Source: an uncultured Candidatus Binatia bacterium (GTDB taxonomy: Bacteria > Desulfobacterota > Binatia > Bin18). From it: a stretch of DNA of 64,000 nucleotides. The DNA lies in NCBI GenBank assembly GCA_965200965.1, contig OZ241744.1, forward strand, positions 2,336,001 through 2,400,000. Reading direction: 5' to 3'. Position numbers and translations under genes: made by a program. Below the pieces are notes generated by a model. That model was not told where the DNA came from, did no database searches, and worked only from the letters and a program-made list of their open reading frames with translations. Shown here piece after piece: positions 35,197 to 55,184 of the stretch (the stretch's first letter is position 1; each line of letters begins with the position of its first letter).

Positions 35197-36600
35197 TCAG
35201 CCGGGTCCGGGAGCCGGAGGAAAGACCCGCCGACAATCGTACACCCGCTCATCAAATACCATGTCCCTGGCTGTCACCGGACGGCTGAAGACCAGCCCCT
35301 CCAGAGATGTGCACCGGCTGAGCGCGACATAGGTCTGACCGTGGGCAAACGCCCCCCGGCCCAGATCAATCAGGACCTTGTCAAAGGTCTGGCCCTGGCT
35401 TTTGTGGATGGTGATCGCCCAGGCCAGGCGGAGCGGATACTGGGTGAAGCTGCCGATTTCCTCTTCTTCAATCCGGTTGGTCTCCTGATTGTAGCGGTAT
35501 CGAATGTTCTGCCAGGTCTCGGGTTCCACCTCGTACTCCGTCCCCCCAATCTCAACCCGGACCGTTGTGTCGCTCAGGCGACTGACCCGTCCGATCGTGC
35601 CGTTGACCCAGCGTCTGTAAGGATCATTCCTGATCAGCATGACCTGGGCCCCGGGTTTGAGCTCCAGCAGCGCTTCGGTCGGAAAGATGGCGTCCTCAAA
35701 CTGACCGCTGCATTCTGCCGGATAGGTATACGATCGCTCGGCGAGACGCTCCAGACAGGCCTGGTTCTTCCGAAACGCGGCCTGGTTGGTGGCAGTCAGG
35801 GTAATACACGACGAGTCCCGGGGCGGCCCGCCGCCCCGCTGCACCCTGGCGTTCAACATGGCTAGCAGTTCGGCGTCCACGTCGTTCTCGCGGATTTTAT
35901 TCAACGCAGAGATGAAAGCCGCGTCGTGTTGGCGGTAGATCGTGGTCAGTTCGACCGAGGAGGGCTGGAGGTCGGCAAAAACCTTGGCGCGAAAGAAGTA
36001 CGGACCGCCGTACTGCTGGTCAAAAAAGGTCTGCATGTCCCGCTCTCTGACAATCGGCGGAAGCTGGAACAGGTCGCCGCACAAAATGACCTGGACCCCG
36101 CCAAACGGGGTGTGCGGGGCATCCCGGTGGAGACGCAGGGCCGTATCAATCCCGTCCATCACATCGGCCCGAACCATGGACACCTCGTCGATAATCAGGG
36201 TTTCCAGTTTCCTGAACAGTTTTGCGCCCCGGCGTTTCCGAAGACTGCCCGGATCGATCAGCGTGGGCGGAAACCGGAAAAAGGAATGGATCGTCTGACC
36301 CCCGACATTGAGGGCGGCCACGCCGGTCGGAGCCAGGACCGCGGTGGCCCTGGTGCTTGTCTCGCGCACATAGTGTAACAGGGTCGATTTTCCTGTGCCG
36401 GCCTTGCCGGTCAGAAACAGACACGGACAGTCCCGCTCGATCAGCGCAAGGGCGTGTTGAAACTCGGCGTTGATCTCAATCTGCTCCAGGTCCCGGCTCC
36501 GCTCCCCGATCGTGCGGAAGGCCGACGGGGCGGGGAGTGAAGGTGTCGCCTTCCGGTCGATCTGATGACTCGTTCGCTCCTTGCTGTGCTGCTGCGTCAC
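35197..36600 (-). CDS. PIF1/RecD-like SF1B DNA helicase (GTG start at 36600 inferred)
   Basis: GKAGTGKST, APTGVAA, DEVSMV, GDLFQLPP, LAWAITIHKSQGQT, GQTYVALSR. Confidence 0.9.
   Translation of the reverse strand: MTQQHSKERTSHQIDRKATPSLPAPSAFRTIGERSRDLEQIEINAEFQHALALIERDCPCLFLTGKAGTGKSTLLHYVRETSTRATAVLAPTGVAALNVGGQTIHSFFRFPPTLIDPGSLRKRRGAKLFRKLETLIIDEVSMVRADVMDGIDTALRLHRDAPHTPFGGVQVILCGDLFQLPPIVRERDMQTFFDQQYGGPYFFRAKVFADLQPSSVELTTIYRQHDAAFISALNKIRENDVDAELLAMLNARVQRGGGPPRDSSCITLTATNQAAFRKNQACLERLAERSYTYPAECSGQFEDAIFPTEALLELKPGAQVMLIRNDPYRRWVNGTIGRVSRLSDTTVRVEIGGTEYEVEPETWQNIRYRYNQETNRIEEEEIGSFTQYPLRLAWAITIHKSQGQTFDKVLIDLGRGAFAHGQTYVALSRCTSLEGLVFSRPVTARDMVFDERVYDCRRVFPPAPGPG
36534..36580. repeat. 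47-bp palindromic element, copy 1 (in or just before the helicase 5' end)
   Basis: GGAGTGAAGGTGTCGCC...GATGACTCGTTCGCTCC. Confidence 0.8.
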
Positions 36601-36746
36601 GGTGGCAAGCACTCCCTTCTGTGTTCCGCCCAGCCTACACCAAAGTGCAGCATCTCTCCAGGAAGCGCCCGGCATTCCCTTTGCGTGGACAGCGCAAGGC
36701 CCCCAGCTCTTGCAGGAATGCCCCAAAGCCGCATACTTCTGGCTGC

Positions 36747-38147
36747 ATGGAAGCCAAGCTGTCCCAGACCTTTGATGTGCTGGTCATCGGCGGTGGTAAT
36801 GCGGGGCTGTGCGCGGCCATGACGGCCGCCCGGAGCGGGGCCACGGTGCTGCTGCTCGAAAGCGCGCCCGAGGCGTTTCGGGGTGGTGACAGTCGCCATA
36901 CGCGCAACCTGCGCTATGCGCACAAGCGGGCCAACGCCTTCCTGACCGGGCCGTATGACGAGGAGGAGTTCTGGGATGATCTGGTGCGGGTCACTGCCGG
37001 CAAGACCAACGAGGGCCTTGCCCGTCTGACCCTGCGTGAGTCGATCGATATCGGCGGCTGGATGGAAGCCCACGGCTGTCGCTTTCAGGCCCCCCTGCGC
37101 GGCACGCTCCATCTGTCAAGAACAAACGCCTTTTTCCTGGGCGGGGGCAAGACGCTGCTGAACGCCTATTATCACACTGCCCAACAGCGCGGGGTACGGA
37201 TCGCCTACCAGACCGAAGTGACCGATCTATGCATGCGGGACGGCCGTTTCTGCTCGGCGCGCATCGGCTCGGGTGCCACCGCACAACAGGTCCATGCCCG
37301 GGCGGTCGTTATCGCCGCCGGCGGATTCCAGGCCAACATCGCCTGGCTCAAAGCGTATTGGGGACCGGCGGCCGACAACTTCATTATCCGCGGCACCCCC
37401 TATAACACCGGCACAATGCTGAGGGTCCTGCTTGACAACGGGACGCAGCCGGTGGGCGACCCGCGCCAGTGTCATGCGGTGGCGATTGACGCCCGAGCAC
37501 CCAGGTTTGACGGCGGCATTGTCACCCGTCTGGACTGCGTGCCATTCGGCATTGTGGTCAACAGCCGGGCCGAACGCTTCTCCGACGAGGGCGAGGATTT
37601 CTGGCCCAGGCGCTACGCCGTGTGGGGCAGAATCGTTGCCCGGCAGCCAGACCAGATCGCCTATGCGATCATTGACGCCAAGGCGCTGGGACACTTCATG
37701 CCGTCCGTTTTCCCGCCCATCGAAGCCGCCTCAATCCGCGGGCTGGCCGGGAAACTCAGCCTGGACCCGGCTACCCTGGAGCAGACGCTCGCCGCGTTCA
37801 ATGCCGCGGTCCAGCCCGGCCGGTTTGATCCGTTGGAACTGGACGCATGCTCGACACGCGGCCTCAGCCCGCCCAAAAGCCACTGGGCGGTGGCGATCGA
37901 CACCCCGCCGTTCTTCGCCTACCCGCTCCGCCCGGGCATTACCTTTACCTACCTGGGGGTGGGCGTGAACGAGCGCGCCCAGATCGTCATGCAGGACGGA
38001 AAACCGGCCGCAAACATGTACGCGGCCGGTGAAGTCATGGCCGGCAATATCCTCGGCCAGGGCTATCTGGCCGGTTTTGGCATGACCATCGGTACAGTCT
38101 TTGGCCGGATTGCCGGCCGGGAGGCGGCCCGCCATGCCCTCGCCTGA
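36747..38147 (+). CDS. tcuA: FAD-dependent tricarballylate dehydrogenase TcuA-like
   Basis: GGGNAGLCAA, GGDSRHTRNLR, LRGTLHLSRTNAFFLGGGK, GNILGQGYLAGFGMTIG. Confidence 0.9.
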   Translation: MEAKLSQTFDVLVIGGGNAGLCAAMTAARSGATVLLLESAPEAFRGGDSRHTRNLRYAHKRANAFLTGPYDEEEFWDDLVRVTAGKTNEGLARLTLRESIDIGGWMEAHGCRFQAPLRGTLHLSRTNAFFLGGGKTLLNAYYHTAQQRGVRIAYQTEVTDLCMRDGRFCSARIGSGATAQQVHARAVVIAAGGFQANIAWLKAYWGPAADNFIIRGTPYNTGTMLRVLLDNGTQPVGDPRQCHAVAIDARAPRFDGGIVTRLDCVPFGIVVNSRAERFSDEGEDFWPRRYAVWGRIVARQPDQIAYAIIDAKALGHFMPSVFPPIEAASIRGLAGKLSLDPATLEQTLAAFNAAVQPGRFDPLELDACSTRGLSPPKSHWAVAIDTPPFFAYPLRPGITFTYLGVGVNERAQIVMQDGKPAANMYAAGEVMAGNILGQGYLAGFGMTIGTVFGRIAGREAARHALA

Positions 38148-39231: not shown

Positions 39232-39289
39232 CAGCCGGCTCGACACACCATGCTGATTTCTATACCATCCCCGGCAGAAGAGACCCCCC

Positions 39290-41062
39290 GTGCCAGAAAT
39301 CGAAGCCAAGTTCCTTGTTCAAGACCCCCACCAGACCGGCCGCCTGCTGAGCGTTCTGCAAGAACTGGGCTACAGCGTTGAACTGCACGGGAACGCGACC
39401 ATTGTCGATCGGTATTTTGACACCCCTGACTGGTCGATATTTCGGGCCGGCTGGGGCTGTCGCCTGCGCGACAGCAACGGCGAGCAGACCCTGACGCTGA
39501 AAGGGCTGGGCTTGCGTGAGGGGGCCATTCAGGTCCGCGAAGAAATTGAACAACGGCTGCTCGTCTCCCATACCTTGAGGCATGAACGTGTCATCCGCTC
39601 GACCGGCCGGCGACCCGTTTACGCCTTGTCACAGGCGATCCCCTCCGGCCCGGTCCGCGACCGTCTCGCCGGCCTGGTCGGCAACCAGCAGACCCGGGAG
39701 TTGTTCATCGTCCGCAATCAGCGCAGCCTGTACCGGCTGACCAGCCCGGCCAAAGGGAATCGTGATACCACAGGAGATCGCCAGGAACTCACGCTTCCCC
39801 TTGCTGACCAGCCCGCCGGGGAGAACCCGGCGTCCACATTGATCGAACTCGCCCTTGACCAAGTCCATATCACCGGAGAAAAATACGCCAGGCTGGCCCC
39901 CGGCGCGTTGAGCTTCAGCGAGGTCGAGCTTGAGCTCAAGCACGGCCCCCAGGAACCGCTGCTGCAACTGGCCGAGCTGCTGCCCAGAAAAACCGCGCTC
40001 CTGCCGGCCCGGCTGAACAAGTTTCAGCGTGGCTTGCAAACCACCGGCCTGTCCATCCCGACCGGGCCGGCCCCAGCCCCACGGCAAGGCGTGAACGGGT
40101 CGCCTTCCTCTCGATCGGATGACACATTCACGCCTCTCAGCCCAACAGCCCCCTGGACCCGCCTGGCCTATGCCCATCTGGCCCGCCAGGCCCGGATTCT
40201 CACACTCCAGCAACCGCGCGCCTGGGAGGGTCTGGAGCCCGAGGGCGTCCACCAGATGCGGGTCGCCCTGCGCCATATCCGGGCCGCCCTGCGGGTCTTT
40301 CGGGCGGTATTGCCGCAGCGCGCGATCGCCCGCCTGAACGCCGAGTTTCGCTGGGCGGCGCGGGTGCTGGGCGAGGTCCGCGACCTTGACGTGTACCGCG
40401 AAAACCTCAAGCGCTATATGGCAGCCATTCCGGCCAACGACGCCGCCCACCTGGCCGAGTACGAACGCCACCTGGCCGAGGAGTGGAAGCGCAGCCGACG
40501 GCGGCTGATCGCCACCTTTCAGAGCCGCCGCTATACCCGGCTGATGGACCGCTTTGAAAAGTTTGTCCAGCGCGGCCCCTCGGCCGCGGCCCTGCGTCCG
40601 TCTGCCGTCGTGCGTATCTGCGACGCCGCGGCCCCGGCCGTAGACCGCAACCTCAAACGGCTGCTCAGAGGCGGCCGGGCCGTTGAAGCCCACTCGCCGG
40701 CCGAACTGCTGCACGCCTTGCGCATCCGGGGCAAACGCCTGCGCTATCTGCTGGAGTTTCTGCGCGATGTGTATAAACCGTTCGGCGATCCGCTGAAGAG
40801 ACCCATTGAGGCGACCAGGCAGCTCCAGGACGTGCTCGGCGAGCATCAGGACGCCTGCGTTGCCTCGGCCCGCCTGCGCAGCTATGCCCAGACCGTGCCC
40901 AAGCGCAAAACCGAACGCCACCTGCTGCTGGCTCTCGGCCAGCTCATCTACAGCCAGGATCAACACGCCGCGGCCCAGCACCAGCAGTTTGACAAGGTGT
41001 GGCGACGCTTCGAGAAAGCGGTCTCGCGCAAGCGGCTGGCAGCCCTCCTGCGGGCCGCCTGA
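39290..41062 (+). CDS. CYTH and CHAD domain protein
   Basis: EIEAKF, YFDTPD, EVELELK; VHQMRVALR, LGEVRDLDV, LHALRIRGKRLRY, LQDVLGEHQD. Confidence 0.9.
   Translation: MPEIEAKFLVQDPHQTGRLLSVLQELGYSVELHGNATIVDRYFDTPDWSIFRAGWGCRLRDSNGEQTLTLKGLGLREGAIQVREEIEQRLLVSHTLRHERVIRSTGRRPVYALSQAIPSGPVRDRLAGLVGNQQTRELFIVRNQRSLYRLTSPAKGNRDTTGDRQELTLPLADQPAGENPASTLIELALDQVHITGEKYARLAPGALSFSEVELELKHGPQEPLLQLAELLPRKTALLPARLNKFQRGLQTTGLSIPTGPAPAPRQGVNGSPSSRSDDTFTPLSPTAPWTRLAYAHLARQARILTLQQPRAWEGLEPEGVHQMRVALRHIRAALRVFRAVLPQRAIARLNAEFRWAARVLGEVRDLDVYRENLKRYMAAIPANDAAHLAEYERHLAEEWKRSRRRLIATFQSRRYTRLMDRFEKFVQRGPSAAALRPSAVVRICDAAAPAVDRNLKRLLRGGRAVEAHSPAELLHALRIRGKRLRYLLEFLRDVYKPFGDPLKRPIEATRQLQDVLGEHQDACVASARLRSYAQTVPKRKTERHLLLALGQLIYSQDQHAAAQHQQFDKVWRRFEKAVSRKRLAALLRAA
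39579..39625. repeat. 47-bp palindromic element, copy 2 (inside CYTH-CHAD)
   Basis: Read through as RHERVIRSTGRRPVYAL. Confidence 0.8.
40088..40134. repeat. 47-bp palindromic element, copy 3 (CYTH-CHAD linker)
   Basis: Read through as GVNGSPSSRSDDTFTP. Confidence 0.85.
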
Positions 41063-41119
41063 AGCGGAGTGGTCTGCCCGGTGATTTACGGGATTGAGGG
41101 GCCGCCTGGATGTTTCCAA

Positions 41120-41166
41120 GGCGTGAAGGTGTCATCAGAGCGAGAGGAAGGCGGCACGTTCACGCC
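41120..41166. repeat. 47-bp palindromic element, copy 4 (supplies the res stop codon)
   Basis: GGCGTGAAGGTGTCATC...GGCGGCACGTTCACGCC. Confidence 0.85.
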
Positions 41167-43793
41167 TCAACGCACTCCAGCAACTGCCGGCGCATGTCCT
41201 TCCCGTCAACGCTGCGCTCTACCAGGCTGAACAGCCCCCGGCCCGCGCTTGCGCGCTGCCACAGCTCGCCCACAGTCCGCTTCTCCGCGGTATCCGCCCC
41301 GTCGGCAAGATGCGCGCCCTTGTATTCGACAACCAGCAGCCTGCCGTCGTCCAGCCGGGCCACAAAGTCGGGGTAGAACCTGCCGGTCGCCGTTGGCAGC
41401 CAGAATGAAGCCGGGTGGCCGGCCACATTGCGAAGCCAGAACTGCACCCCCGGCAGGTGGTCAAGGACCTCGGCGCAGCGACGCTCCTCACCGTCGTCCG
41501 CGCCGTCAAAGGCCGGGACGTGGGCCGGGCCGAGAAAGTGCCGGGCCGGCTTCCAGGGTCCCCGGTAGCACCGCCGGTCCTGATACATGCCGGCCCGGAA
41601 TGCAAAGGTGTTGGCAAAGGACACTTCGGGCCTGGCCCCGGGCGACAGGAGATAGCGCTGATAGGCGCGTTCGCGTTCCTGACGGCGAATGGCGTTGAGC
41701 TTGTCACGGATCTTTCGCATCAGGATGAACTTGCAGCGCATGAGGGCGGCCACCGGGATGCCCCGCCCGACCGTCAGGTGATGGACGAGATCGGACAGCC
41801 ACCTGAGCAATTCGCCCTGCCCGATATCGGGCCCGCGCACCTGCCGGTCGAGCCACAGGACCAGCTTTTCCGGGGTCCAGCCGGCCACGGCAACATTCAG
41901 CCCGAGCTGCTCCTGCTCGCCGGCGAACTGATAGGTGACACGCTGGCCGTCAAGGTCAATCTCAAAGCTGCGGACCGTCTCCCGGACCGAAAATTCCGCC
42001 TCGCTCAGCCGTGGCGAATGCGCCAGCAGCGACCAGTCGTGGAACTCCATGAACACGTCGCTGTCGGCACCCTCAAACCCGCCCTGCATATCGACCATGA
42101 GCCGCGGCACCTCAAACGGCTCGCCCCGCTCCGCGGGCGACAGCCGGTCGTTCATCTGCTGGCGATGCCACGCAAAGGAGTCGGCAAGCTGCCGGCCCTC
42201 GGCCTCCGGCAGGGCCGCGCACACGGCCCGCTCCAGGCCGGCGTCTACCGGGCCGACAATCTCCAGCGCAAGCCGGCCGCCGCCGAGCTTGCGCACGGTC
42301 AGCGCGTGCTCCGCCTGCTCCGCCTGCGCCAGGGCGGCCACCAGCGCGGGCGTGGCCGGCAGCGTCTGCCGGAAGGTCGGCCCGGGGTTCTCGTGCCGGC
42401 TGAACAGCACGCCCGGTTCTTCCTGCAGCGGCTCAATGCTGTCGTGCGCCTCGTCCTCCTCAAAACCCATCGCCACCAGCCTGTCGGCCAGCGCCCGGGC
42501 CGCCTCGCCGGCGGACGGCTCGGACAGACAGGCGTAGGCCCGGTTCAGCTCGGCGACAGGCCGGCGGCTGGCAAACGGCATCCGCAGCACCCGGCCCAGC
42601 AACTGTTCAACATCGGTGGCGCTGTGAATGCGCGAGACCGAGCAGAACACATAGGCAAAGGAACAGTCCCAGCCCTCTTTGAGCGCCTCGACGGTGATGA
42701 TGTACTCAATCGGACAGCGCCGATCAAACAGGTCAAGGCCGTCGAGTTCGCGCTGTTCGCCGGTCGCCACCGCAATCGCGCTGGCCGGGATATGCTCAAC
42801 CCCGGTCAGATGCGCCTTCAACACCCGGGCCGTGACTTCCCCGCTCTTCTTCTGGGCCTGAAACAGAACGATGGGCCGGACGTAGTCGGCGTCACGGCCG
42901 GCCGCCTCGGCCAGCGCGGCCCGCCTGGCAATCGCCGCGTTGACCGCGTTCTGCCAGTTGTCATGCTCGGACAGCATGATCGGCAGCGTGATCATGTCCG
43001 CAGCCTTCAACTCCTGGGCGGTGACGCTGTACAGAATGTTTGACTTGGGCCGGGGCGTTGCCGTGAACTCAATAATGGCGCTCGGATTGACCCGGGCCTG
43101 CATATCGCGGGTCAGTCCTGTCACCGCGTTGTGCGCCTCGTCCACGATCATCAGCGGGCGGTGGAGGTACAGCAGGTTGGCAAACGAAAACCTGAGCCGG
43201 CCGCTGTCCAGCCGCTCCAGGCCCGGCAGGTCGTCGGGCAGCGTTGAGAAGTGCGGCTCCAGGTGCTCATTGTGGGCGTAGACCTTGCGCCCCTCGGTAC
43301 TCTTGACCCGCAGCGTCTGGATCGTGCCGACCACCAGGCAGCAGTGGTCGCGCAGCTCGGGCGGGCGAATCTGGGCAAAGTCGGCAATATCGAACACCCG
43401 CACCCGGCCGCCAAAGGCCGCGTCCAGGGCTTGGCGGCAGGGGTGACGGGGGTTCCTGAGGGCTTCGACGGTCTGCGAGCGGATGGTGTTGGACGGGACC
43501 AGCCACAGGACGGCCGGATGGTCTTTTTCAATCCAGGCGTCACGCGCTACCGCAACCGCGTGGGCGGCCAGGAGGGTCTTGCCCCCGCCGGTCGGCAGCC
43601 GCAGGCAGACAGAGGGCACCTCCGGCAGCCCGTCCAGCGGCGCATACGCCCCGGCGTAGCGGCCCAGCCGCCCGGCCAGCTCGGGTTCGCGGGTCAGGGT
43701 CGCATAGGCGGTCTGCGGCCCGGCGATGCGCGCCGTCTCAAAGAAGCGGCGCAGCGTAGACAGGGTATCGGTCTGATAGGGCTTGAGTTGCAT
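41160..43793 (-). CDS. res: Type III restriction endonuclease Res subunit
   Basis: MQLKPYQ, LPTGGGKT, DEAHN, EFTATP, LKEGWD, QLLGRVLR, FYPDFV...VEYKG. Confidence 0.9.
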   Translation of the reverse strand: MQLKPYQTDTLSTLRRFFETARIAGPQTAYATLTREPELAGRLGRYAGAYAPLDGLPEVPSVCLRLPTGGGKTLLAAHAVAVARDAWIEKDHPAVLWLVPSNTIRSQTVEALRNPRHPCRQALDAAFGGRVRVFDIADFAQIRPPELRDHCCLVVGTIQTLRVKSTEGRKVYAHNEHLEPHFSTLPDDLPGLERLDSGRLRFSFANLLYLHRPLMIVDEAHNAVTGLTRDMQARVNPSAIIEFTATPRPKSNILYSVTAQELKAADMITLPIMLSEHDNWQNAVNAAIARRAALAEAAGRDADYVRPIVLFQAQKKSGEVTARVLKAHLTGVEHIPASAIAVATGEQRELDGLDLFDRRCPIEYIITVEALKEGWDCSFAYVFCSVSRIHSATDVEQLLGRVLRMPFASRRPVAELNRAYACLSEPSAGEAARALADRLVAMGFEEDEAHDSIEPLQEEPGVLFSRHENPGPTFRQTLPATPALVAALAQAEQAEHALTVRKLGGGRLALEIVGPVDAGLERAVCAALPEAEGRQLADSFAWHRQQMNDRLSPAERGEPFEVPRLMVDMQGGFEGADSDVFMEFHDWSLLAHSPRLSEAEFSVRETVRSFEIDLDGQRVTYQFAGEQEQLGLNVAVAGWTPEKLVLWLDRQVRGPDIGQGELLRWLSDLVHHLTVGRGIPVAALMRCKFILMRKIRDKLNAIRRQERERAYQRYLLSPGARPEVSFANTFAFRAGMYQDRRCYRGPWKPARHFLGPAHVPAFDGADDGEERRCAEVLDHLPGVQFWLRNVAGHPASFWLPTATGRFYPDFVARLDDGRLLVVEYKGAHLADGADTAEKRTVGELWQRASAGRGLFSLVERSVDGKDMRRQLLECVEA

Positions 43794-43839
43794 GGGAGTC
43801 GTTCGGATGACGTGTGTCGTGCTGCTCGTGGGAGGGCTG

Positions 43840-44226
43840 TCAGCCCTCCCCCTGGCGCGGCGCGGTGCGTTCAATCAAGGTCCGCAGGGCTTCCCCCTGC
43901 TGGTGGAGGGCTTCCCCCTGCTGGTGGAGGGCTTCCCCCTGCTGGCGGAGAGTTTCCCCTTGCTGGCGCAGGGCTTCCCCCTGCTGGCGGAAAGCTTCCC
44001 CTTGCTGGCGCAGGGCTTCCTCCTGCTGGCTCAGGGCTCCGCTCTGCTGGCGCAGGACTTCCATTGTCTCGGCGTGCTGTTGCCGCGCTTCGGCATGACG
44101 CTCGGCGTGTTCGGTCGCGCGCCGGCGGCTCTCGTTGCGTATGAGCAGCAAGCCGCCTCCCAGCACAAGGATCTGCCCCAGCCCCACAAGGCCCGCAACC
44201 ACCACTCCAGCAGCTTCCCAATTCAT
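43840..44226 (-). CDS. Small TM and heptad-repeat coiled-coil protein
   Basis: N-terminal TM; 8 x 21-bp repeats at 43885-44052 encoding (R/H)QQGEAL. Confidence 0.75.
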   Translation of the reverse strand: MNWEAAGVVVAGLVGLGQILVLGGGLLLIRNESRRRATEHAERHAEARQQHAETMEVLRQQSGALSQQEEALRQQGEAFRQQGEALRQQGETLRQQGEALHQQGEALHQQGEALRTLIERTAPRQGEG

Positions 44227-44245
44227 ACGCCTGTCCTTCAGAGGG

Positions 44246-44307
44246 GCAGGTCAGCTTAGCAGGATGTCGATTACGCTCCGCTCATCCGACCTGCTCATCC
44301 GACCTGC
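44246..44307. repeat. Degenerate REP-like inverted repeat containing a 13-bp tandem duplication
   Basis: GCAGGTCAGCTTAGC...(GCTCATCCGACCT)x2 GC; the minus strand resembles GTAG-type REPs. Confidence 0.5.
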
Positions 44308-44310
44308 GAT

Positions 44311-45867
44311 TCATCCCCGCGCCCGCACATCATACGGCAACTGTTTGAACACCACCTGCTCCCGCGCCAGCGTGGCCGCGGCCAGGCGCGACTGCTCGCC
44401 GTAGACCGTCAGCGGACAGGCGGGATGCGCCGGCGCAAAGCCCGGATGGGCCGCGGCGAGCTGCTCACGAATCAGCCCCAGCGTGGCCCGCGTCAGCACA
44501 TTGCCGCCGGCCGGCCGCCGGTCGCCCAGAATGCCGTTGTACAGCAGGGCGTAGGCGTGGCCGTCGTGCAGGCCGAGAAGAGGCGGGTGCGCATTCCCCG
44601 GCCAGGGCCGCTCAGTCTCGCTGAACCACACATGGGCGGCCAGGGTCGAAAACCCTATCTCCGCGTTGATACGCCCCGCAGCGTCAAACACCGCCGGCCC
44701 CAGCCGGAAGCAGCGGAAGCCGCCCCCGCCCTCCCAGCCGACCGCCTTGGAGATGCCGCCCTGCTCGCCGGCCATGACCTTGCCGAGCCGGGGCACGCAG
44801 TGCGTCACCGCGTGCTCGCCCATCTCAATGCCGATCCAGCGTCTGCCCATCTTGTGGGCCACCGCCGCGGTCGTGCCCGAGCCGAGAAACGAGTCAAGCA
44901 CCAGCTCGCCGGGCCTGGTGGCAATGTGCAGCACCCGGTGAATGAGGCGTTCGGGCTTCGGCGTCTCGAACACTGCCGACTTCCCGAATAAGTCAATGAT
45001 TTCCCGTTTCGCCTCTTGCGTATTACCAGTCTCTTCATTTGACCACCACGTCCAGGATTGCCTCCCCTTGGCCTCCGAGAGGTAATTCTTCCTGCGTGGT
45101 ACGCCTTTTCCGTCCTTACCGAACCAGAATCGCCCTTCCTCAACCTGCTTCAAAAAAACACTTTCCACATTCTTCCAGCACGATCCTTCCGGCGGATAGT
45201 ATGCGACACCCCCCGGAGTGACGATTTTGTACATTTGATTCGGCCTGTACCCCTGTGCGCTGAAGTCCCGCGAAACCCACGCACCACGGGGATCATGATC
45301 CGGGTTTTTGTATTCCTCCCTCTGGCGTTGGCTCAGCGGAAGCAGATTGGCGTTTTCACGGAATGCTTCTGCGTTTCTGGAATAGACAAGCACAGCGTCG
45401 TGTCCATCGCCAAGAGCCACGCGAAAATCGGGGGAAGTTCTCTTCTGCCAGACGACATTTGCAATAAAGTTCTTGCGCCCGAACACCTCATCCATGATGA
45501 CCTTGAGATAATGCCCCTCGTTGTCGTCAATGGAGACCCAGATGGACCCGTCTTCGGTCAGCAGTTCGCGCAGGAGTTCGAGCCGCGGCCACATCATCGC
45601 CAGCCATTGGGTATGTTCGAGATTGTCGTCATAGTGTACAAAGGCCGAGCGGGTGTTGTACGGCGGGTCAATGCAGATACACTTCACCCGCCCGGCGTAG
45701 AACGGCAGCAGGGCCTTGAGCGCGTCCAGATTATCGCCCTGAATCAGCAGGTTGCCGGCCTCCGGGTCGCCGGCCGACAGCGCCGGCACTTCCTCCAGCA
45801 GCCGATACGGCACACGGCCGGCGGCGCGCACATCTTCGTCCCGGGTCAGCCAGTGCAGGGTCGGCAT
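44311..45867 (-). CDS. mod: Type III R-M modification methylase (N6-adenine)
   Basis: IQGDNL, IDPPYNT, SIDDNE, TPKPERL, DSFLGSGTT. Confidence 0.92.
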   Translation of the reverse strand: MPTLHWLTRDEDVRAAGRVPYRLLEEVPALSAGDPEAGNLLIQGDNLDALKALLPFYAGRVKCICIDPPYNTRSAFVHYDDNLEHTQWLAMMWPRLELLRELLTEDGSIWVSIDDNEGHYLKVIMDEVFGRKNFIANVVWQKRTSPDFRVALGDGHDAVLVYSRNAEAFRENANLLPLSQRQREEYKNPDHDPRGAWVSRDFSAQGYRPNQMYKIVTPGGVAYYPPEGSCWKNVESVFLKQVEEGRFWFGKDGKGVPRRKNYLSEAKGRQSWTWWSNEETGNTQEAKREIIDLFGKSAVFETPKPERLIHRVLHIATRPGELVLDSFLGSGTTAAVAHKMGRRWIGIEMGEHAVTHCVPRLGKVMAGEQGGISKAVGWEGGGGFRCFRLGPAVFDAAGRINAEIGFSTLAAHVWFSETERPWPGNAHPPLLGLHDGHAYALLYNGILGDRRPAGGNVLTRATLGLIREQLAAAHPGFAPAHPACPLTVYGEQSRLAAATLAREQVVFKQLPYDVRARG

Positions 45868-45868
45868 G

Positions 45869-46513
45869 TCAGAGCAGCTTGACCAGGGCCACAGTCAGAC
45901 CGACAATCGCCGCCGCCTGCGCCCACAGCACCCGATACATCTCGGCCCGCAGGTCCGCGATGGCGGCCTTCGTCGAGTTTTGCGACTCCACCATCTGCGC
46001 TTTCAGGTCCGCAAGCTCCGCTGTCGTCGTCTCGCGCAACTCCCCGATCCCGGCCCGCAACGCCGCAATGTCGGCCTTCGTCGTCTCGCGCAACTCCCCG
46101 ATCCCGGCCCGCAACGCCGCAATGTCGGCCTTCGTCATGTCGCGCAACTCCGCAAGCTCGGCCTTCAACTCGGCCCGCAACGCCGCAATGTCGGCCTTCG
46201 TCGTCTCGCGCAACTCCCCGATCCCGGTCTTCAACTCGGCCCGCAACGCCGCAATGTCGGCCTTCGTCGTCTCGCGCAACTCCCCGATCCCGGTCTTCAA
46301 CTCGGCCCGCAACGCCGCAATGTCGACCTTTGTCGTGTCGCGCAACTCCCCGATGTCCGCTTTCGTCGTAGCCTGCGACTCCACGATGTCCGTCTTGGTC
46401 GCTACACCTTCGGTGACGGCACTACGCAGCACGCCAACGACCGCCGCGGCCTGGGTTTCATCCATCCCCGCCTCGGTCAGTTGGCGGGCAGCGATCAGGG
46501 TATCGAAGAGCAT
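45869..46513 (-). CDS. CCDC90/DUF1640-like head, coiled-coil stalk and membrane-anchor protein
   Basis: FDTL..ARQLTEAGM...QAAAVV head, ATKTDI neck, 54/66-bp repeats with TTKADIAALRA, C-terminal TM. Confidence 0.8.
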   Translation of the reverse strand: MLFDTLIAARQLTEAGMDETQAAAVVGVLRSAVTEGVATKTDIVESQATTKADIGELRDTTKVDIAALRAELKTGIGELRETTKADIAALRAELKTGIGELRETTKADIAALRAELKAELAELRDMTKADIAALRAGIGELRETTKADIAALRAGIGELRETTTAELADLKAQMVESQNSTKAAIADLRAEMYRVLWAQAAAIVGLTVALVKLL

Positions 46514-46594
46514 GGTCGTCTCCCCTCATGGTGTCTGGTGAGCCAGATTATAGGCTATTGAGTCCGGCGGGGCGACTCAGGGCAGCCGCAGGTA

Positions 46595-47980
46595 TCAATC
46601 GGCCTCCGCCTTCGGGACCTCCGACATGGCTTGCTTGTATTCAGCGATCCATTGTTCAGCCTCTTCCGCGGTGTAGGCTCCGGTCTCGGCTCCGGCTGGT
46701 GGTTCGTGACTTGGCGGCTTGCCAAGGTGTGGCGTCAATGGCTCTCGCAACTCCTGTGCTCGTTTACCGGACAAGCCTTTGACAAGGGAGTCAATGTCTT
46801 CTTGACTCAGCCCGCCCGCAAAAGTTACCCTCGAGAGGTCGCTTTCTTTACCAATCCAGTTTCTTATTCTTTCTTCAAAGGGTTTCCCAGACAGATATTC
46901 GCTCGTAGCCCCTTGCAACCGTGCGTCCCTAAGAACAACTCCTTGTAACTGCGCGTCCAAAAGATTAGCCCCTTGTAACCGCGCGCCCAAAAGATTAGCC
47001 CCTTGTAACTGCGCGCCCCAAAGATCAGCCCCTTGCAACTGCGCGCCCAAAAGATCAGCCCCTTGCAACTGCGCGTCCAAAAGATTAGCCCCTTGTAACC
47101 GCGCGCCCCAAAGATTAGCCCCTTGTAACTGCGCACCCCTAAGATCAGCCCCTTGCAACTGCGCACCCCTAAGATCAGCCCCTTGCAACTGCGCGCCCCA
47201 AAGAACAGCCCTTTGTAACTGCGCGCCTAAAAGAACAGCCCTTTGTAACCGCGCGCCCCAAAGATTAGCCCCTTGCAACTGCGCGCCCCTAAGAACAGCC
47301 CCTTGCAGTCGTGCCCGGCTTAAGTCGGCCCTTGCTAAACGCGCTAGAGTGAGAGAAGCCCCATTCAGCCAACTTCCTTGCAGATTGGTATGGCAATTTT
47401 TGAAAACCTCGTGCTCCTGCACAAACAGCAAAGTCAGCATACTTTGGACTTCTTCCGAAGGTTCCACCTCGTGCTTTTTTCTGTATTCGTCCCCGCCCGT
47501 CGTCTGCCGGATGTGGGCACAGAGAATTTCAAGCACGGTCTGACATAGCTCCGGGGTGTCTTGCGCCAGATGGAAAAGCTCATAGGCCCCGCCCAGACGC
47601 ACAGAGTCCTTTTCGTTTCCCAGATGCTCAATGGCGTTTTTCAGGCGCTCTTGTCGCTGGCCCTGCTCGGTGTTCAACACGGCGTCTTCCATCGCCTTGG
47701 CCCGCCGGTAGGACATCAGGGCTTGCAGGGCAACCAGCACCCCGCCCATGCCAAAGCCGAGAAACCTCAGGGCCTGATACTTCCTTGATGGACCGCCTTC
47801 CGCTTCCCTTATTCCCAAAAGGCTGAAAATCGACTCTGAGCACACATCAAACGCAACAGCCACGAAAAGGCCGGCCAACACCAGACCAACACAGAAAAGC
47901 AGACCGACAAGAAGACTCTGAAAAGGCTGAGCCTTGATTTTTTTCCAGAGGTTTTGGCACACGGTTGCAAACTTAGTCAT
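46595..47980 (-). CDS. Membrane-anchored pentapeptide-repeat protein
   Basis: Two TM segments, ERLKNAIEHLG...VRLGGAYEL, 13 x 30-bp repeats at 46911-47300. Confidence 0.88.
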   Translation of the reverse strand: MTKFATVCQNLWKKIKAQPFQSLLVGLLFCVGLVLAGLFVAVAFDVCSESIFSLLGIREAEGGPSRKYQALRFLGFGMGGVLVALQALMSYRRAKAMEDAVLNTEQGQRQERLKNAIEHLGNEKDSVRLGGAYELFHLAQDTPELCQTVLEILCAHIRQTTGGDEYRKKHEVEPSEEVQSMLTLLFVQEHEVFKNCHTNLQGSWLNGASLTLARLARADLSRARLQGAVLRGAQLQGANLWGARLQRAVLLGAQLQRAVLWGAQLQGADLRGAQLQGADLRGAQLQGANLWGARLQGANLLDAQLQGADLLGAQLQGADLWGAQLQGANLLGARLQGANLLDAQLQGVVLRDARLQGATSEYLSGKPFEERIRNWIGKESDLSRVTFAGGLSQEDIDSLVKGLSGKRAQELREPLTPHLGKPPSHEPPAGAETGAYTAEEAEQWIAEYKQAMSEVPKAEAD

Positions 47981-48012
47981 AGCGGCATCCTTTCTGCCCC
48001 AGCACTCCGACC

Positions 48013-48330
48013 TTACGCACCGCGGCGTAACAACTCCTCCAAGGCGCGCCCGTGGCGGTCGAGGGTCTGGCTCTGCCGCTCCAGTATCTGGCTCTGCCGC
48101 TCCAATATCTGGCCCAGGGTCTGGCCCTGTCGCTCCAGCATCTGGCCCAACACCACCCCCTGCCGCTCAAACGCCTCGCCCTGCTGCTTGACAGACTGGC
48201 TCATCATGTCAATTTCCCGGTCCCGCCGCCGCCCGGCTTTCTGCATCTGGAACAAACCCCAAAAAATGCCACTCAGGCCCACCGTGTTGATGCCGATTTG
48301 TACCCAGGTGGCGATGATCTGCTGTTCCAT
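48013..48330 (-). CDS. Small TM and heptad-repeat coiled-coil protein
   Basis: Hydrophobic N-terminus; LERQ(G/S)Q(T/I) repeats; ends ALEELLRR. Confidence 0.7.
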   Translation of the reverse strand: MEQQIIATWVQIGINTVGLSGIFWGLFQMQKAGRRRDREIDMMSQSVKQQGEAFERQGVVLGQMLERQGQTLGQILERQSQILERQSQTLDRHGRALEELLRRGA

Positions 48331-48446
48331 GCCGTCCACCTTACCCTGCTCACCCGCTCAGGACGGATGTAGCGCATTCTCGCCCGGCGCGCAAAAACGC
48401 ACCGACACGCCATGACAAAACCGCGGAAAGCAGCCACAATAGCCCC

Positions 48447-48749
48447 ATGCACAACGTTCACCTCAGTCGCCTGCGGATCATCGGACTGGCCGAAGGCAGC
48501 TCATTTGTGGCCCTGCTCGGCATCGCCATGCCGCTCAAATACCTTGGCGATATGCCGCTGGCGGTGACGCTCGTCGGCTGGGTGCATGGCCTGCTGTTCA
48601 TGGCCCTGTGCGTCGCGGCCCTGCGGGTCAAGCGCGCGCTGGGCTGGGACAGCAGAGCCGCCGGCCTCGTGGTGCTGGCCGGGCTGCTGCCCTTCGGCCC
48701 ATTTGTGATTGACGGCTGGTTACGCAAAGAGGATGGGACACGCCCATGA
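48447..48749 (+). CDS. DUF3817 family membrane protein
   Basis: [18 protein letters not shown]...GWVHGLLF...LPFGPF. Confidence 0.85.
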
Positions 48750-48789
48750 CCGGTCGCCGTCGTGTCCCGTCCTCACAGGAGGGAAGAGC

Positions 48790-49548: not shown

Positions 49549-49568
49549 CCCACCACGGGGAAGCGCGT

Positions 49569-50981: not shown

Positions 50982-51005
50982 GCCGCGCCGGCCGGGACGG
51001 AACAC

Positions 51006-51548
51006 ATGGCCCATGCCTACGATCCGTACTACCGGGATTTTCCGTCAAACCTCCTGCCGGCCCACACGCCGTTCACCCGCGCCGGCCAGGGCGACGCCGG
51101 CCATGTCTTCATCTACATGACGCGCAGATGGAGGCGAGGGGTGAACCTGTCATCAGAAGGCGACACATTCACCCCTTGCTGGAGTCTGGTCCTGGACAGA
51201 AGCCGCCTGGAGCTGATTCACGATGAGGCCCGGCAGTGTATTCCGCCCGGCTTCTCCCAGCTCTGGCTGCTGGAAAAGCGCTACAGCACGGCCCGACCGG
51301 GCGGCCGGGCACGGCCTTTGCCCACACACCCTCTGTTTGACCGCCGTGGGCCTCCGCCCAAGACCATTCTTGAAGAAAAGCTGCTGGTCGTCCTGCGCGA
51401 GCCGCCCCAACGGCCCGACGGCAAGGGGGATGTGCTGTCCTACCACCTGCGTGAGGCCGAAGCGCTGCGGGCGGCCGAGGCATATACGCGGAGGTCCCGG
51501 CACCGGGCGGTCGTCGCCGGGCTGCTCTGGGATGAGTTGTGGTTTTAG
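51006..51548 (+). CDS. Hypothetical protein containing a palindromic element
   Basis: Fills the gap after the amidase on the same strand; no recognised motif. Confidence 0.6.
   Translation: MAHAYDPYYRDFPSNLLPAHTPFTRAGQGDAGHVFIYMTRRWRRGVNLSSEGDTFTPCWSLVLDRSRLELIHDEARQCIPPGFSQLWLLEKRYSTARPGGRARPLPTHPLFDRRGPPPKTILEEKLLVVLREPPQRPDGKGDVLSYHLREAEALRAAEAYTRRSRHRAVVAGLLWDELWF
51138..51175. repeat. Palindromic element, copy 5 (38 bp; 9-bp loop deletion)
   Basis: Read through as GVNLSSEGDTFTP. Confidence 0.8.
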
Positions 51549-51560
51549 CCGGAAGAGGGA

Positions 51561-52766
51561 TCAGTTTCCCCAAGGGGTGAATGTGTCGCCTTCCTCTCGA
51601 TCGGATGACAGGTTCACCCCTCGGAGCCGGGCCAGGTTGCGGCGGACTTCAGGACAAAAAATTGTCGCCTGCTCCTTTCTCCCCATCTTCTCCAGGACCT
51701 CGGCAAAGCGGCTGCACATTGACAGGGCGCGCTCATAGGCGCTCAGGGCCTCGTCTTTTTTGTTGAGGCGCTCAAACGCATCGCCCAAATGGACATAGGC
51801 ATAGGCATAGTCGGGGGCCAGGTGTACCGTCTGTTGCCACGCCTGGGCCGCTCCCGACCAGTCGCCTTTGGCGGCCAGCAGGTGGCCTAAGCGGTTATGC
51901 ACATAGGGGGCGGACGGCACGAGCTGGAGCGCTGCGCGATAGGCTGCGAGGGCACCGGGCGCGTCTCCGGTCGCCTCGAGCACCCTGGCAAGCTGCACCT
52001 GGGCCGTCGCATTATCCGGCTCCAGCCGCAGCGCTTCCCGGAAGGCCGCAATCGCTTTGGTCTGCTCGCCACGGTCTCGCCACGCCACGCCGATCAGGTG
52101 GTGGGCTTTGGCCGCGGTGGGCGCGACACGAATCGTCTTTTGCCACTCGACAATCGCTTCATTCAGCTGGCCTTGGTCGTAGAAGCGTTGTCCGCGTTCG
52201 ATATGCGCCTCGGCCTCCGGGGGTAAAGAGGGCGGCGGCGAAGGAGCAGCGGTGCGCGCCTCGGGTGACAGCGAGGGGTGAACGTGTCGCCTTCCTCCCG
52301 AGCCGATGACCTGTTCACCCCTCGAAAAGAGCACCCGGGCCTGCTCCCCAGCCACGTCCTCACCCGGCTCTCGCCCCACTTCGCCGAGCGCGGCCGTGAC
52401 CAGACCCTCCTGTTGTTTGACCACAAAAGGCGGCATGTCTGTTCCGGTCAAATCGAGGACAAAGCGGGTGTAGCCCGGGTGGGAGCCAACCCGGACCTGC
52501 CGCACCAGCCTGTCCTCTACGCCATAGGTGGCCGCTCGACGCGACTTGACCGCTCCCCTGACATCAACCACCAGCCGCAGCGGTGACGACAGGGCAAAAG
52601 GTTTCACGGCATCGGGCGGATGAGAGAACCGCAGGGCAAGGATGCGCTGTCCGCCCTGCACCGAGAAGCGCATGGTGTGCAGCCTCAGTTCGCTGTGGGA
52701 CCGCGCGGCGTGCGCCCCGCCTGTCCAGACACTCACGAGCAGGATGCAGAGCCAGGCTTTGCCCAT
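51561..52766 (-). CDS. Exported AMIN-domain and TPR protein (paralog of 23110-24702)
   Basis: Signal ending AHA; FALSSPLRLVVDV...QVRVGSHPGYTRFVLDL; AKAHHLIG, YVHNRLGHLLA, PDYAYAY. Confidence 0.85.
   Translation of the reverse strand: MGKAWLCILLVSVWTGGAHAARSHSELRLHTMRFSVQGGQRILALRFSHPPDAVKPFALSSPLRLVVDVRGAVKSRRAATYGVEDRLVRQVRVGSHPGYTRFVLDLTGTDMPPFVVKQQEGLVTAALGEVGREPGEDVAGEQARVLFSRGEQVIGSGGRRHVHPSLSPEARTAAPSPPPSLPPEAEAHIERGQRFYDQGQLNEAIVEWQKTIRVAPTAAKAHHLIGVAWRDRGEQTKAIAAFREALRLEPDNATAQVQLARVLEATGDAPGALAAYRAALQLVPSAPYVHNRLGHLLAAKGDWSGAAQAWQQTVHLAPDYAYAYVHLGDAFERLNKKDEALSAYERALSMCSRFAEVLEKMGRKEQATIFCPEVRRNLARLRGVNLSSDREEGDTFTPWGN
51574..51620. repeat. 47-bp palindromic element, copy 6 (encodes the TPR protein C-terminus)
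   Basis: Read through as GVNLSSDREEGDTFTP. Confidence 0.85.
52275..52321. repeat. 47-bp palindromic element, copy 7 (AMIN-TPR linker)
   Basis: Read through as RGEQVIGSGGRRHVHPS. Confidence 0.85.
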
Positions 52767-52802
52767 AGCAGCTCGGGGCCAGCATAGGCCGCGGCCGGCC
52801 AC

Positions 52803-53786
52803 CTACCAGCGAAGGATTGAAGTCCCCCAGGTCAGCCCCCCGCCGCAGCCGCACAGGGCAAGAATATCGTTGGGCCGCACCCGGCCGGCCCGGACGGCCT
52901 CATCAAGCGCAATCGGGATAGAGGCGGCGGAGGTATTGCCGTAGTTCTGGATGTTGCAGTACACCCGGTCCATCGCAATCTGAAGACGGTCGGCCACCGC
53001 CCGGATGATGCGCAGGTTGGCCTGATGGGGAATCATCAGGCTCACGTCAGCGGGCGACAGGCCGGCCTTGTCCAGGGCTTTGCGGGTGACCTCGGACAGG
53101 GCCCGGACGGCGACCTTGAACAACTCAGGCCCCTTCATCTGAATACCCCACTCTTTGGGGCGCGAGCCTGCTTGATCGACCGTCTGTCTATGGTCGGCGC
53201 GCACATGCAGCAGCTTCCACAGCGTCCCGCTCGATTCCACTACGGTGCTGAGCAGACCGCGTTTGTCGGACCGGGCATTCTGGGTATCCAGGACAACCGC
53301 CCCGGCCCCGTCGCCAAACAGGACACAGGTCGAGCGGTCTTCCCAGTTGACCATCGTGCTGAGGGTATCAGCCCCGACCAGCAGCAGACGGTCGTAGTCA
53401 CCGCTCTTGATATAGCTGTGGGCGACAGACATGCCGTACACAAAGCCGGCGCACGCCGCGTTCACGTCAAAGGCCGGGATATTGTCGAGCCCGAGGCGGG
53501 CCTGGAGCAGGCAGGCGGTGGAGGGGAAGGCGTAGTTGCCGGAGACGGTGGCCACCACAATCGCCTGGAGCCGCTCGGCCGCCACACCCGAGGCGTCCAG
53601 GGCCTGGCAACTGGCCTGGTACATCAGGTCGAGGACATCCTCGCCCTCGGTCATCACATACCGCTGGTGGATGCCGGTCCGGCTGACAATCCAGTCATGG
53701 CTGGTGTCAACACGTTTTTCCAGGTCGGCATTGCTCAGACAGGTCCTGGGGACGGAGGAGCCGGTACCGATGATGCGAGCGCCCAT
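52803..53786 (-). CDS. fabH: 3-oxoacyl-ACP synthase III
   Basis: AACAGF, LFGDGAGA, PHQAN, GNTSAASIP, GGGLTWG. Confidence 0.95.
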   Translation of the reverse strand: MGARIIGTGSSVPRTCLSNADLEKRVDTSHDWIVSRTGIHQRYVMTEGEDVLDLMYQASCQALDASGVAAERLQAIVVATVSGNYAFPSTACLLQARLGLDNIPAFDVNAACAGFVYGMSVAHSYIKSGDYDRLLLVGADTLSTMVNWEDRSTCVLFGDGAGAVVLDTQNARSDKRGLLSTVVESSGTLWKLLHVRADHRQTVDQAGSRPKEWGIQMKGPELFKVAVRALSEVTRKALDKAGLSPADVSLMIPHQANLRIIRAVADRLQIAMDRVYCNIQNYGNTSAASIPIALDEAVRAGRVRPNDILALCGCGGGLTWGTSILRW

Positions 53787-53807
53787 GCGCAATCCCTTTC
53801 TCTCTGA

Positions 53808-53854
53808 GGCGTGAACATGTCGCCGTCCTCTCGATCTGATGAAACGTTCATTCC
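53808..53854. repeat. 47-bp palindromic element, copy 8 (fabF-fabH intergenic)
   Basis: GGCGTGAACATGTCGCC...GATGAAACGTTCATTCC. Confidence 0.85.
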
Positions 53855-53869
53855 TTTCTGCCCCCCGTC

Positions 53870-55120
53870 TTACTCCGTCCATTTGCGAAACGCGATGGTC
53901 GCATTGGTGCCGCCAAAGCCAAATGAGTTTGACAGCACCGCCCGAACCGGCGCTTTTCTCGGCGTGTTGGGGACGTAATCGAGGTCGCAGTCTGGATCAG
54001 GTTCTTCATAGTTGATGGTCGGCGGCAGGGTGTCACGGTCAAGGATCAGAGCGGCGTAGACCGCTTCGACCCCGCCGGCGGCACCGAGCAGATGACCGGT
54101 CATGGATTTGGTTGAACTGATCGCCAGCCGTCCGGCATATTCGCCAAACACCCGTTTGATGGCCTGGGTCTCGGTGGCGTCGTTGTAGGGGGTCGAGGTG
54201 CCGTGGGCGTTGATGTAGTCAATCTCGGTCGGATGGATATTCCCGCTGCGCAGGGCCTGCTGCATACAACGGACCGCGCCTTCTCCCTCGGGCGAGGGGG
54301 CGGTCATGTGGTGGGCGTCACAGTTCGCGCCATAGCCGACCACCTCGGCGTAGATTTTCGCCCCGCGGCGATGCGCCGATTCCAGCTCTTCCATCACCAC
54401 CATGCCGGCACCTTCGGCCATGACAAAACCGTCCCGACGCCTGTCAAACGGGCGGCTGGCTCTGTGGGGCTCGTCGTTGTGGGTTGAGACCGCCTTCATG
54501 GCGATAAAGCCGCCTAGTCCCAGGGGGGTGAGGGCGGCTTCTGCACCGCCGGCGATGACCGCCTGTTGTTCACCGAGGCGAATCAGTCGAAACGCCTCGC
54601 CAATGGCGTGCGACCCGGAGGAGCAGGCGCTTGTCGGGGTGTAGTTGACGCCCTTGGCACCATAGTGAATGGCAATCTGACCGGGGGCCAGGTTGGCGAT
54701 CAGCTTGGGAATAAAAAACGGTGAGACCTTTTTGAGGCCGGTGTCGAGGAAAACTTTATGGTAGGTTTCAATGCTGGTCAGGCCGCCAATGCCGACACCA
54801 ACGATCACCCCCACCCGGTCTTCATTGTCCGGTGTGATCGGCAGGCCGGCCTCGTCCATTGCCATTTGGGCCGAGGCGTAGGCGTACTGGATGAAGGGGT
54901 CCATCTTTTTGATTTCGCGTTTCTCGATAAACTCCTCAGGCACAAAATCCGTGACCTCGCCACCAATCCGGGTCGGAAAGTCCGATACGTCGAAGCGGGT
55001 GATCGGGCCGATACCAGAGCGGCCTTCGAGCAGCCCGGTCCAGTTTTTCTCAACCCCCGTACCGAGCGGCGTGACCAGACCCAACCCAGTAATTACGACG
55101 CGACGGCGTTCGTCTTTCAT
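53870..55120 (-). CDS. fabF: 3-oxoacyl-ACP synthase II
   Basis: RRVVITGLG, SACSSG, INAHGTST, KSMTGHLLGAAG, SNSFGFGGTN. Confidence 0.96.
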   Translation of the reverse strand: MKDERRRVVITGLGLVTPLGTGVEKNWTGLLEGRSGIGPITRFDVSDFPTRIGGEVTDFVPEEFIEKREIKKMDPFIQYAYASAQMAMDEAGLPITPDNEDRVGVIVGVGIGGLTSIETYHKVFLDTGLKKVSPFFIPKLIANLAPGQIAIHYGAKGVNYTPTSACSSGSHAIGEAFRLIRLGEQQAVIAGGAEAALTPLGLGGFIAMKAVSTHNDEPHRASRPFDRRRDGFVMAEGAGMVVMEELESAHRRGAKIYAEVVGYGANCDAHHMTAPSPEGEGAVRCMQQALRSGNIHPTEIDYINAHGTSTPYNDATETQAIKRVFGEYAGRLAISSTKSMTGHLLGAAGGVEAVYAALILDRDTLPPTINYEEPDPDCDLDYVPNTPRKAPVRAVLSNSFGFGGTNATIAFRKWTE

Positions 55121-55137
55121 ACACACCTCTGCCTTGA

Positions 55138-55184
55138 GGCGTGGACGTGTCATCAGAGCGAGAGGAAGGCGGCACGTTCACGCC
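55138..55184. repeat. 47-bp palindromic element, copy 9 (upstream of fabF)
   Basis: Nearly identical to copy 4. Confidence 0.85.

Follow-up and report, generated by a model that had tools for sequence, protein, structure and literature searches.

The 64,000-nucleotide stretch of DNA analysed here (the window; contig OZ241744.1, positions 2,336,001 to 2,400,000, from an uncultured Candidatus Binatia bacterium) carries nine copies of a short palindromic element, a 51-bp hairpin whose insertion is blunt, leaves no target-site duplication and takes place at the centre of a weak palindrome. With a probability of about 0.5, we read it as a likely non-autonomous MITE (a miniature transposable element with inverted repeats) moved in trans by a transposase-like enzyme that has since been lost; that it is a selfish non-autonomous mobile repeat is very probable. 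An initial annotation, made from the sequence of the window alone, had proposed a mobile non-autonomous palindrome that enters genes in frame. Empty orthologous sites, exact gaps of 17 or 14 residues in protein alignments and the purifying selection estimated for the host genes all uphold this proposal.

Insertion sites and target sequence

Comparison of the source genome (G000) with the orthologous regions of its congeners G007 (about 89% identical), G004, G003 and G001 showed that the element was missing at eight of the nine window sites, and the check for empty orthologous sites named beforehand was thereby answered. Six sites passed a strict test and two had nearby indels; the ninth, at 52273, had no clean ortholog. 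The net gain per site was 51 bp (42 bp for the short copy), with no duplicated bases. The mobile unit delimited by these empty sites consists of AA, a 47-bp core and TC, and is two bases longer on each side than the 47 bp first described. Its ends are asymmetric (AA...TC) and its arms are 15-16 bp long. The length variant noted earlier, a 9-bp loop deletion, proved real, the full short copy being 42 bp. The window copies are as follows.

36532..36582, + strand: 51-bp copy, antisense in the 5′ part of the PIF1-like helicase open reading frame (ORF), about 6 codons past the probable start; empty in G003, G001 and G007, with a 17-aa gap
39577..39627, - strand: 51-bp copy, in frame within the CYTH-CHAD protein, in its CYTH domain, aa ~97-113
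40086..40136, + strand: 51-bp copy, in frame in the linker that joins the two CYTH-CHAD domains, aa ~267-283
41118..41168, - strand: 51-bp copy, from which the type III restriction (res) gene takes its TGA stop codon
51136..51177, - strand: 42-bp copy, shortened by a 9-bp deletion in the loop, in frame in a hypothetical protein of 180 aa, 14-aa gap
51572..51622, + strand: 51-bp copy, in frame at the C-terminal end of the AMIN-TPR protein
52273..52323, + strand: 51-bp copy, in frame in the AMIN-TPR linker, clean empty site lacking
53806..53856, + strand: 51-bp copy, intergenic between fabF and fabH, with an exact empty site in G007
55136..55186, - strand: 51-bp copy, intergenic, upstream of fabF

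Beyond the window, 57 full-length copies could be compared with G007, of whose 3.6 Mb about 0.85 Mb was taken in. Exact flank joins were obtained for 25 of them, none with the target duplication that the initial annotation had expected; 6 copies were shared and 26 remained unresolved owing to flank indels. Clean 54-bp empty sites, likewise without target duplication, were found in a sister genus (g8, which includes G031, G036 and G054).

The target is symmetric (C-N3^N3-G), and 122 of 206 half-sites have C at -4 or G at +4 (p=3e-17). The same motif was seen again around 54 G031 copies and in 40 perfect-arm metagenome copies (of 41 loci; G at -5 in 49/80, C at -4 in 35/80). Among 103 full-length copies of G000, the end classes were A...C (28), G...T (32, the same ends with the loop reversed), A...T (21), C...T (9) and other (13). 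The end base of a copy was independent of the flanking base, and a 1- or 2-bp target duplication was rejected on this ground. The idea that the target mimics a circle junction was also rejected, in that only position 4 fits and g8 has G, not T, at -5. Close strains of the source genome are present in sponge metagenomes, and contigs from four sequencing runs of such strains span window copies, with no 51-bp loss among the matches listed; the copies are therefore no artefacts of assembly, and they seem to be fixed in the species.

Copy number and distribution

G000 is a complete genome of 3.62 Mb. An iterated profile hidden Markov model (HMM) returned 119 matches in it at E<=1, against 0 in the reversed genome that served as control. 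The nine window copies (E 4e-8 to 4e-16) lay at the positions and in the orientations originally given, and the first 36 kb of the window, said to be free of copies, held no match at this threshold. The 103 full-length copies comprised 50 intragenic, 43 intergenic and 10 lying across a gene end. With gene calls from a codon model built for the analysis, 84% of the DNA is coding, and the intragenic share (50/103) lies below that figure (p=1e-16).

The copies are not scattered independently of their relatedness: 54 adjacent pairs differed at 11.2 positions, against 15.6 over all pairs, and none of 10,000 permutations reached this value. Neighbouring copies are thus sisters, which points to local hopping. 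A total of 43 of the 103 copies lay within 300 kb of the GC-skew minimum, and no bias between leading and lagging strands was detected (25 vs 35, p=0.25).

A covariance model found the element in 28 of 55 genomes of the family, namely G000, 6 of 7 congeners and 21 of 28 genomes of g8, with 0 of 19 in eight other genera; in a class-wide sample, the 13 matching genomes out of 151 all came from the two carrier genera. The version of the relatives is mostly 54 bp long (34/54 in G031); its arms are conserved and the centre of its loop is hypervariable, a pattern that fits a left end and a right end with a free spacer between them. The exact 51-bp core pattern occurred in one other record of the GTDB collection, a Binatia. 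We found no description of the element in the literature, supplements aside, so that a mention in a genome paper is possible.

An older sister family, family B (e.g. C1:223900, 948865, 1938680), gave 64 further matches at E<=1 in G000, 15 of them inside genes, and was also present in G001, G003, G004 and G007. The fabF-fabH spacer, which holds the 53806 copy in G000, has a family-B copy instead in G004, G003 and G001. Immediately upstream of the SDR gene lies a 46-bp hairpin (window 48729-48774) that is shared with G007, and a different, family-B-like hairpin stands at the same place in G001 and G003; the former is probably an older relic of the same superfamily as the element.

Covariation of the arms and inversion of the loop

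The stem covariation pointed out in the initial annotation is real, since 91% of cells were paired (26 copies) and the covariation score was reached in 0 of 500 shuffles; it is no proof of selection on structure, as the arms are homogenised and the loops invert in place. On a rival explanation, the palindromes would be maintained host signals (protein-binding sites or RNA hairpins) and not selfish DNA. The covarying stems, the enrichment near the putative origin and the many intergenic copies would suit that explanation. However, most sites are lineage-specific gains, and the empty orthologous sites largely refute it. In addition, both orientations and four frames are used in unrelated genes, no Rfam match was obtained in the window at the gathering threshold, and both strands fold alike (-11.3 and -11.4 kcal/mol). 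We therefore regard maintained signals as highly improbable, and individual copies could nevertheless have been co-opted by the host.

The available text of PMC8604942 reports that template switching between inverted repeats homogenises arms and inverts spacers, so covariation need not mean selection on structure and may here reflect template switching rather than function. Several observations bear on such inversion. Each of the larger stem subfamilies holds both loop orientations, and among near-identical copies the end class was kept in 7 pairs and switched in 6. One orthologous g8 copy has the same flanks in G054, G031 and G036, but in G054 its loop is inverted with respect to the other two, and this in-place flip rules out that loop orientation is fixed at insertion. 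A second g8 site is probably also loop-inverted, and at a third the last base is C in one genome and T in four. No flip was seen, judging by eye, at 14 shared or partly shared G000/G007 loci, most of them old and degenerate. A micro-inversion was also observed in the flank beside a copy (L154:3670-3678 vs L222, L228), which suggests that in these genomes short inverted repeats are a common site of template switching. An identity with integron attC sites was rejected, as the AAC/GTT boxes are not conserved across subfamilies.

Such switching could also be taken as the whole means of spread, the element being copied by host replication or repair onto a nearby hairpin, perhaps after a cut by a host nuclease, with no dedicated enzyme. 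The sister relation of neighbouring copies, the clustering around the GC-skew minimum, the in-place inversions, the end class that is not inherited and the lack in G000 and G007 of all transposase types searched are in its favour, as is the known effect of template switching on arms and spacers cited above. Against it, the ends are base-precise across two genera, the flanks of sister copies are hardly homologous (5.0 vs 4.5 of 12), and the strong target motif suggests recognition by a protein. Close strains in four runs show no loss of window copies among the matches listed, so that activity may have ended with the loss of an enzyme. On balance, purely host-driven copying, the second rival to our reading, seems to us unlikely.

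Search for a mobilising enzyme and proposed mechanism

A RAYT or IS200/IS605 transposase flanked by the element, which the initial annotation had recommended looking for, was not found in a search for the Y1 domain in G000 and its relatives. The domain is missing from G000, G007, G003, G004, G005 and G054; 0 of 30 Y1 loci of relatives matched the element HMM and 0 of 8 Y1 loci of g8 carried an element arm, several loci having their own GTAG repetitive extragenic palindromic sequences (REPs). These results bear on the possibility that an HUH enzyme (IS200/IS605 or RAYT-like) cuts the hairpin out as a circle of single-stranded DNA, closed at a C^A junction, and reinserts it with no duplication, in the way that a REP or REPIN would move. 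The strong hairpin and the lack of target duplication agree with this route. The ends of the element would form a C^A junction, and the Marinomonas TnpA-REP cleaves at CA and CT according to the accessible part of PMC8266576; end-oriented targets lean to C at -1 (24/60) and to a purine at +1 (45/60). On the other side, besides the missing Y1 domain and the Y1 loci free of the element, there is no GTAG tag, the target is symmetric and the strand bias is absent. An HUH enzyme is in our view the main rival, on account of the hairpin and the C^A junction, and a rather doubtful mobiliser.

Other enzyme types were surveyed in five genomes. Serine recombinases occurred in none of them, IS110 in one, where it was not linked to the element, and DDE_Tnp_1 in four, with none in G007 and always with ends unlike those of the element. 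G000 and G007 have two tyrosine recombinases each, which we take from their size to be XerC/D. Reverse transcriptases were present in three genomes; the one in G000 is interrupted by an internal stop, and no copy of the element lies next to it. It is a stand-alone gene 5 kb outside the window (L248:1048-2421; G000 C1 ~2,405,000) that looks like a defence-type reverse transcriptase, with one internal TAG; its G007 ortholog gave a match without an internal stop. Neither G000 nor G007 has a stand-alone GIY-YIG or DUF559 nuclease. Genes beside copies in G000 and the metagenomes were housekeeping or unassigned and included no mobiliser candidate, and viral contigs gave 7 lone-arm matches and 0 paired elements.

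G006 (L189/L193/L196) holds about 45 copies, identical in score, of an 875-bp element of the IS5 family, whose terminal repeat has a 10-base word in common with the arm-loop junction of our element. As a candidate partner this IS427-like element was judged weak: the word is common to 25 of 96 copies but lies at a different distance from the end, and the IS427-like element makes a TA-type duplication and has no remnant in G000.

In the reading that we favour, a dimeric enzyme would recognise the arms and a few adjacent loop bases, cut the target bluntly at the centre of its palindrome and act in trans close to the donor. A dimeric transposase is the best fit to an element with precise ends and terminal repeats that inserts bluntly into a symmetric target. 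By analogy with Spy, a eukaryotic precedent for DDE transposition without target-site duplication described in the accessible text of PMC4122938, the enzyme may have been of the DDE class with Spy-like geometry, which is the likeliest class and yet a guess whose chances are roughly even. It would since have been lost from G000. Selection would then keep intergenic copies, as well as intragenic ones that fall in loops, linkers or termini and are read in a stop-free polar frame; if insertion is unbiased, the kept share would be about one fifth of coding insertions. The flipped loops, much of the arm covariation and the change of AA...TC into AA...TT by repair would follow from arm-to-arm template switching. 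Support is good for the steps that lead from insertion to retention.

Several points weigh against a transposase moving the element in trans. The autonomous partner was not found in a survey that left out IS630, IS1595, IS91, IS3 and other families. G000 has no multi-copy insertion sequence (IS), and none of the IS proteins retrieved from the relatives matches it. In carrier genomes, IS4/IS5 elements differ from ours in their ends and make target duplications; ISKra4 is mostly found in non-carrier genera and, within the two carrier genera, in 2 of 36 genomes; ISAzo13 was found in 0 of 5 genomes, by a search whose control was also silent. Lone arms occur at 17 sites in 55 genomes, and the 9 loci examined, whose neighbours are housekeeping genes or ORFs with no Pfam match, held no transposase. 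We know of no bacterial DDE family with blunt insertion. With regard to retention, the dN/dS of host genes is slightly above background (p=0.024), and in g8 the association between a length divisible by three and an intragenic position is not significant (6/50 vs 0/22, p=0.17).

A broader proposal, that the element represents a micro-transposon class new to bacteria, a 51-54-bp hairpin copying locally and bluntly, with no duplication of the target, by means of a host or undescribed enzyme instead of a known transposase, strikes us as more doubtful than probable. If it held, a loop flip would switch one insertion between two unrelated 17-residue peptides in essential proteins.

Host genes and predicted effects on their proteins

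Five genes of the window carry copies.

35197..36600, - strand: PIF1-like helicase
39290..41062, + strand: CYTH-CHAD protein, with two inserts
41160..43874, - strand: type III restriction subunit (ResIII)
51006..51548, + strand: conserved hypothetical protein, no Pfam match
51561..52802, - strand: AMIN-TPR protein, with two inserts

An intragenic copy is predicted to add 17 amino acids to its host protein. In protein alignments, exact 17-residue gaps appeared twice in the CYTH-CHAD protein and once in the helicase, and the hypothetical protein had a gap of 14 residues. The helicase gap confirms the N-terminal copy proposed earlier, with an uncertain start codon, and the peptides quoted in the initial annotation, the res stop codon and the two intergenic positions all held. 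The res gene of G007 lacks the 41118 copy, and its protein is about 7 residues longer at the end. The AMIN-TPR paralog at 23 kb, previously used as an empty reference, is a weak one, being 45% identical with a much longer linker; orthologs provided a clean empty site for the C-terminal copy (51572) and none for that at 52273. The placement of inserts in linkers and termini stands for some copies, yet they are not confined there, the first CYTH-CHAD insert lying inside the CYTH domain. Both CYTH-CHAD inserts are essentially missing from 95 homologs. In an AlphaFold model (mean predicted local distance difference test score, pLDDT, 91.5), both domains are kept at pLDDT >90 and the inserts are put in low-confidence loops, one a loop of the CYTH domain and the other the linker.

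Other host genes in G000 include those for ThrS, DnaX, MurF, PhoR (two copies), the CCA-adding enzyme (two), ATP synthase delta and Cas3 (three). Judged from a median dN/dS of 0.29 (n=22) against a background of 0.23 (n=561; p=0.024), the host genes are under purifying selection that is slightly relaxed. Intragenic copies sit in stop-free, mostly polar frames in both orientations: the 50 copies used four frames 16, 14, 9 and 9 times and two others once each. For the most hydrophobic open frame, 8 uses were expected and one was observed (p=0.002, post hoc; p=0.07 in the overall test of frames). At ten copies the stop codon of a gene comes from the element, the res gene being one case. Only 6 of 72 copies are intragenic in g8, and all six are 54 bp long. 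The Cas3 gene (L170:2129-4942; G000 C1:2840128-2842941) holds its three in-frame copies in three different frames. In the thrS gene (L159:9263-11116; G000 C1:1914262-1916115), one in-frame copy lies at aa 570 of the protein, within the C-terminal domain and at the point where the match to solved ThrS chains stops, and a second copy gives the stop codon of the gene.

Elsewhere in the window, coding tandem repeats with 21-, 33- and 30-bp periods, one of them in a pentapeptide-repeat gene, and four near-identical tandem genes of about 579 bp were observed (43862-44092, 45938-46434, 46846-47385, 48057-48146 and 55267-57601). Defence-type genes lie at 2786-10766, 41160-45867 and 58612-63364 and comprise a DUF1156 methylase, an SNF2 helicase, a type III restriction-modification system, a PAPS-reductase domain, GmrSD and DndB.

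Comparison with known systems

The small dispersed repeats (SDR) of Nostocaceae, attributed to Elhai et al. in 2008, are reportedly very small mobile repeats with no enzyme known, and belong to a different phylum from the host of our element. Spy, as far as the available part of PMC4122938 describes it, likewise has terminal inverted repeats and inserts precisely at the centre of a palindromic target without duplication. It differs from our element in being eukaryotic, in encoding a DDE transposase and in its target, AAA^TTT; our element, of which the AA and TT bases are a part, has a GC-framed target, and its enzyme was not found.

The initial annotation had used the label MITE/REP-like, of which mobility and the MITE-like terminal repeats stand, while the REP tests of tag and RAYT failed. 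Bacterial MITEs, in the excerpts available from PMC10969869 and PMC3184786, have terminal inverted repeats, a short non-coding spacer and no enzyme of their own, and are polymorphic. The element has the terminal inverted repeats, and its mobility is evident from filled and empty orthologous sites; it differs in that no target-site duplication is made and no IS with matching ends was found in the families searched, and it is smaller than the MITE entries in the accessible portion of PMC3184786 (103 bp and up). REPs and REPINs, as outlined in parts of PMC8266576, PMC3116915 and PMC3733652, resemble it as short hairpins in about 100 copies, with lineage-restricted subfamilies and some intragenic members. 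In contrast to them, the element has no GTAG/CGTC tag at the hairpin foot (flank logos) and no REPtron, G000 and G007 have no Y1 gene, and no Y1 or RAYT gene flanked by the repeat was found in the genomes searched; its copies are single units, not inverted doublets, and 43 of 103 are intergenic with half intragenic.

The closest likeness is to the Rickettsia palindromic elements (RPEs), which the sections available of PMC10969869, PMC3184786 and PMC3733652 present as palindromic, non-autonomous and dispersed, with many in frame in unrelated genes and some twice in one gene. In-frame insertion in unrelated genes is found here too, with 50 of 103 copies intragenic. The RPEs of these sources are about 105-150 bp long, whereas the element is 51 or 54 bp, has no CGTC tag and ends in AA...TC or AA...TT. 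Its sequence is probably unrelated to theirs; the exact core matched a single locus, a Binatia record, in the GTDB collection, and the covariance model was run within the class. It further differs in the use of four frames in both orientations, in its blunt symmetric target and in its host, a Binatia lineage of sponge metagenomes.

How RPE-like elements move is a long-open question, which this family makes testable: it offers base-exact ends, a target motif, copies of varied age in 28 genomes and two lengths divisible by three (51 and 54 bp), and the transposase-poor carrier genomes narrow the search for an enzyme by comparative genomics. The copies also amount to a natural insertion scan, from which one can read the loops that accommodate 17 added residues in ThrS, DnaX, MurF, PhoR, the CCA-adding enzyme and Cas3. 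The significance is limited by the uncultured state of the hosts and by the nature of the inserts, to which no function is assigned. The element works like the RPEs but is not one of them, nor is it a REP; the phenomenon itself was known already, and what is newly resolved is the insertion geometry, the loop flips, the local spread and the enzymes that are excluded.

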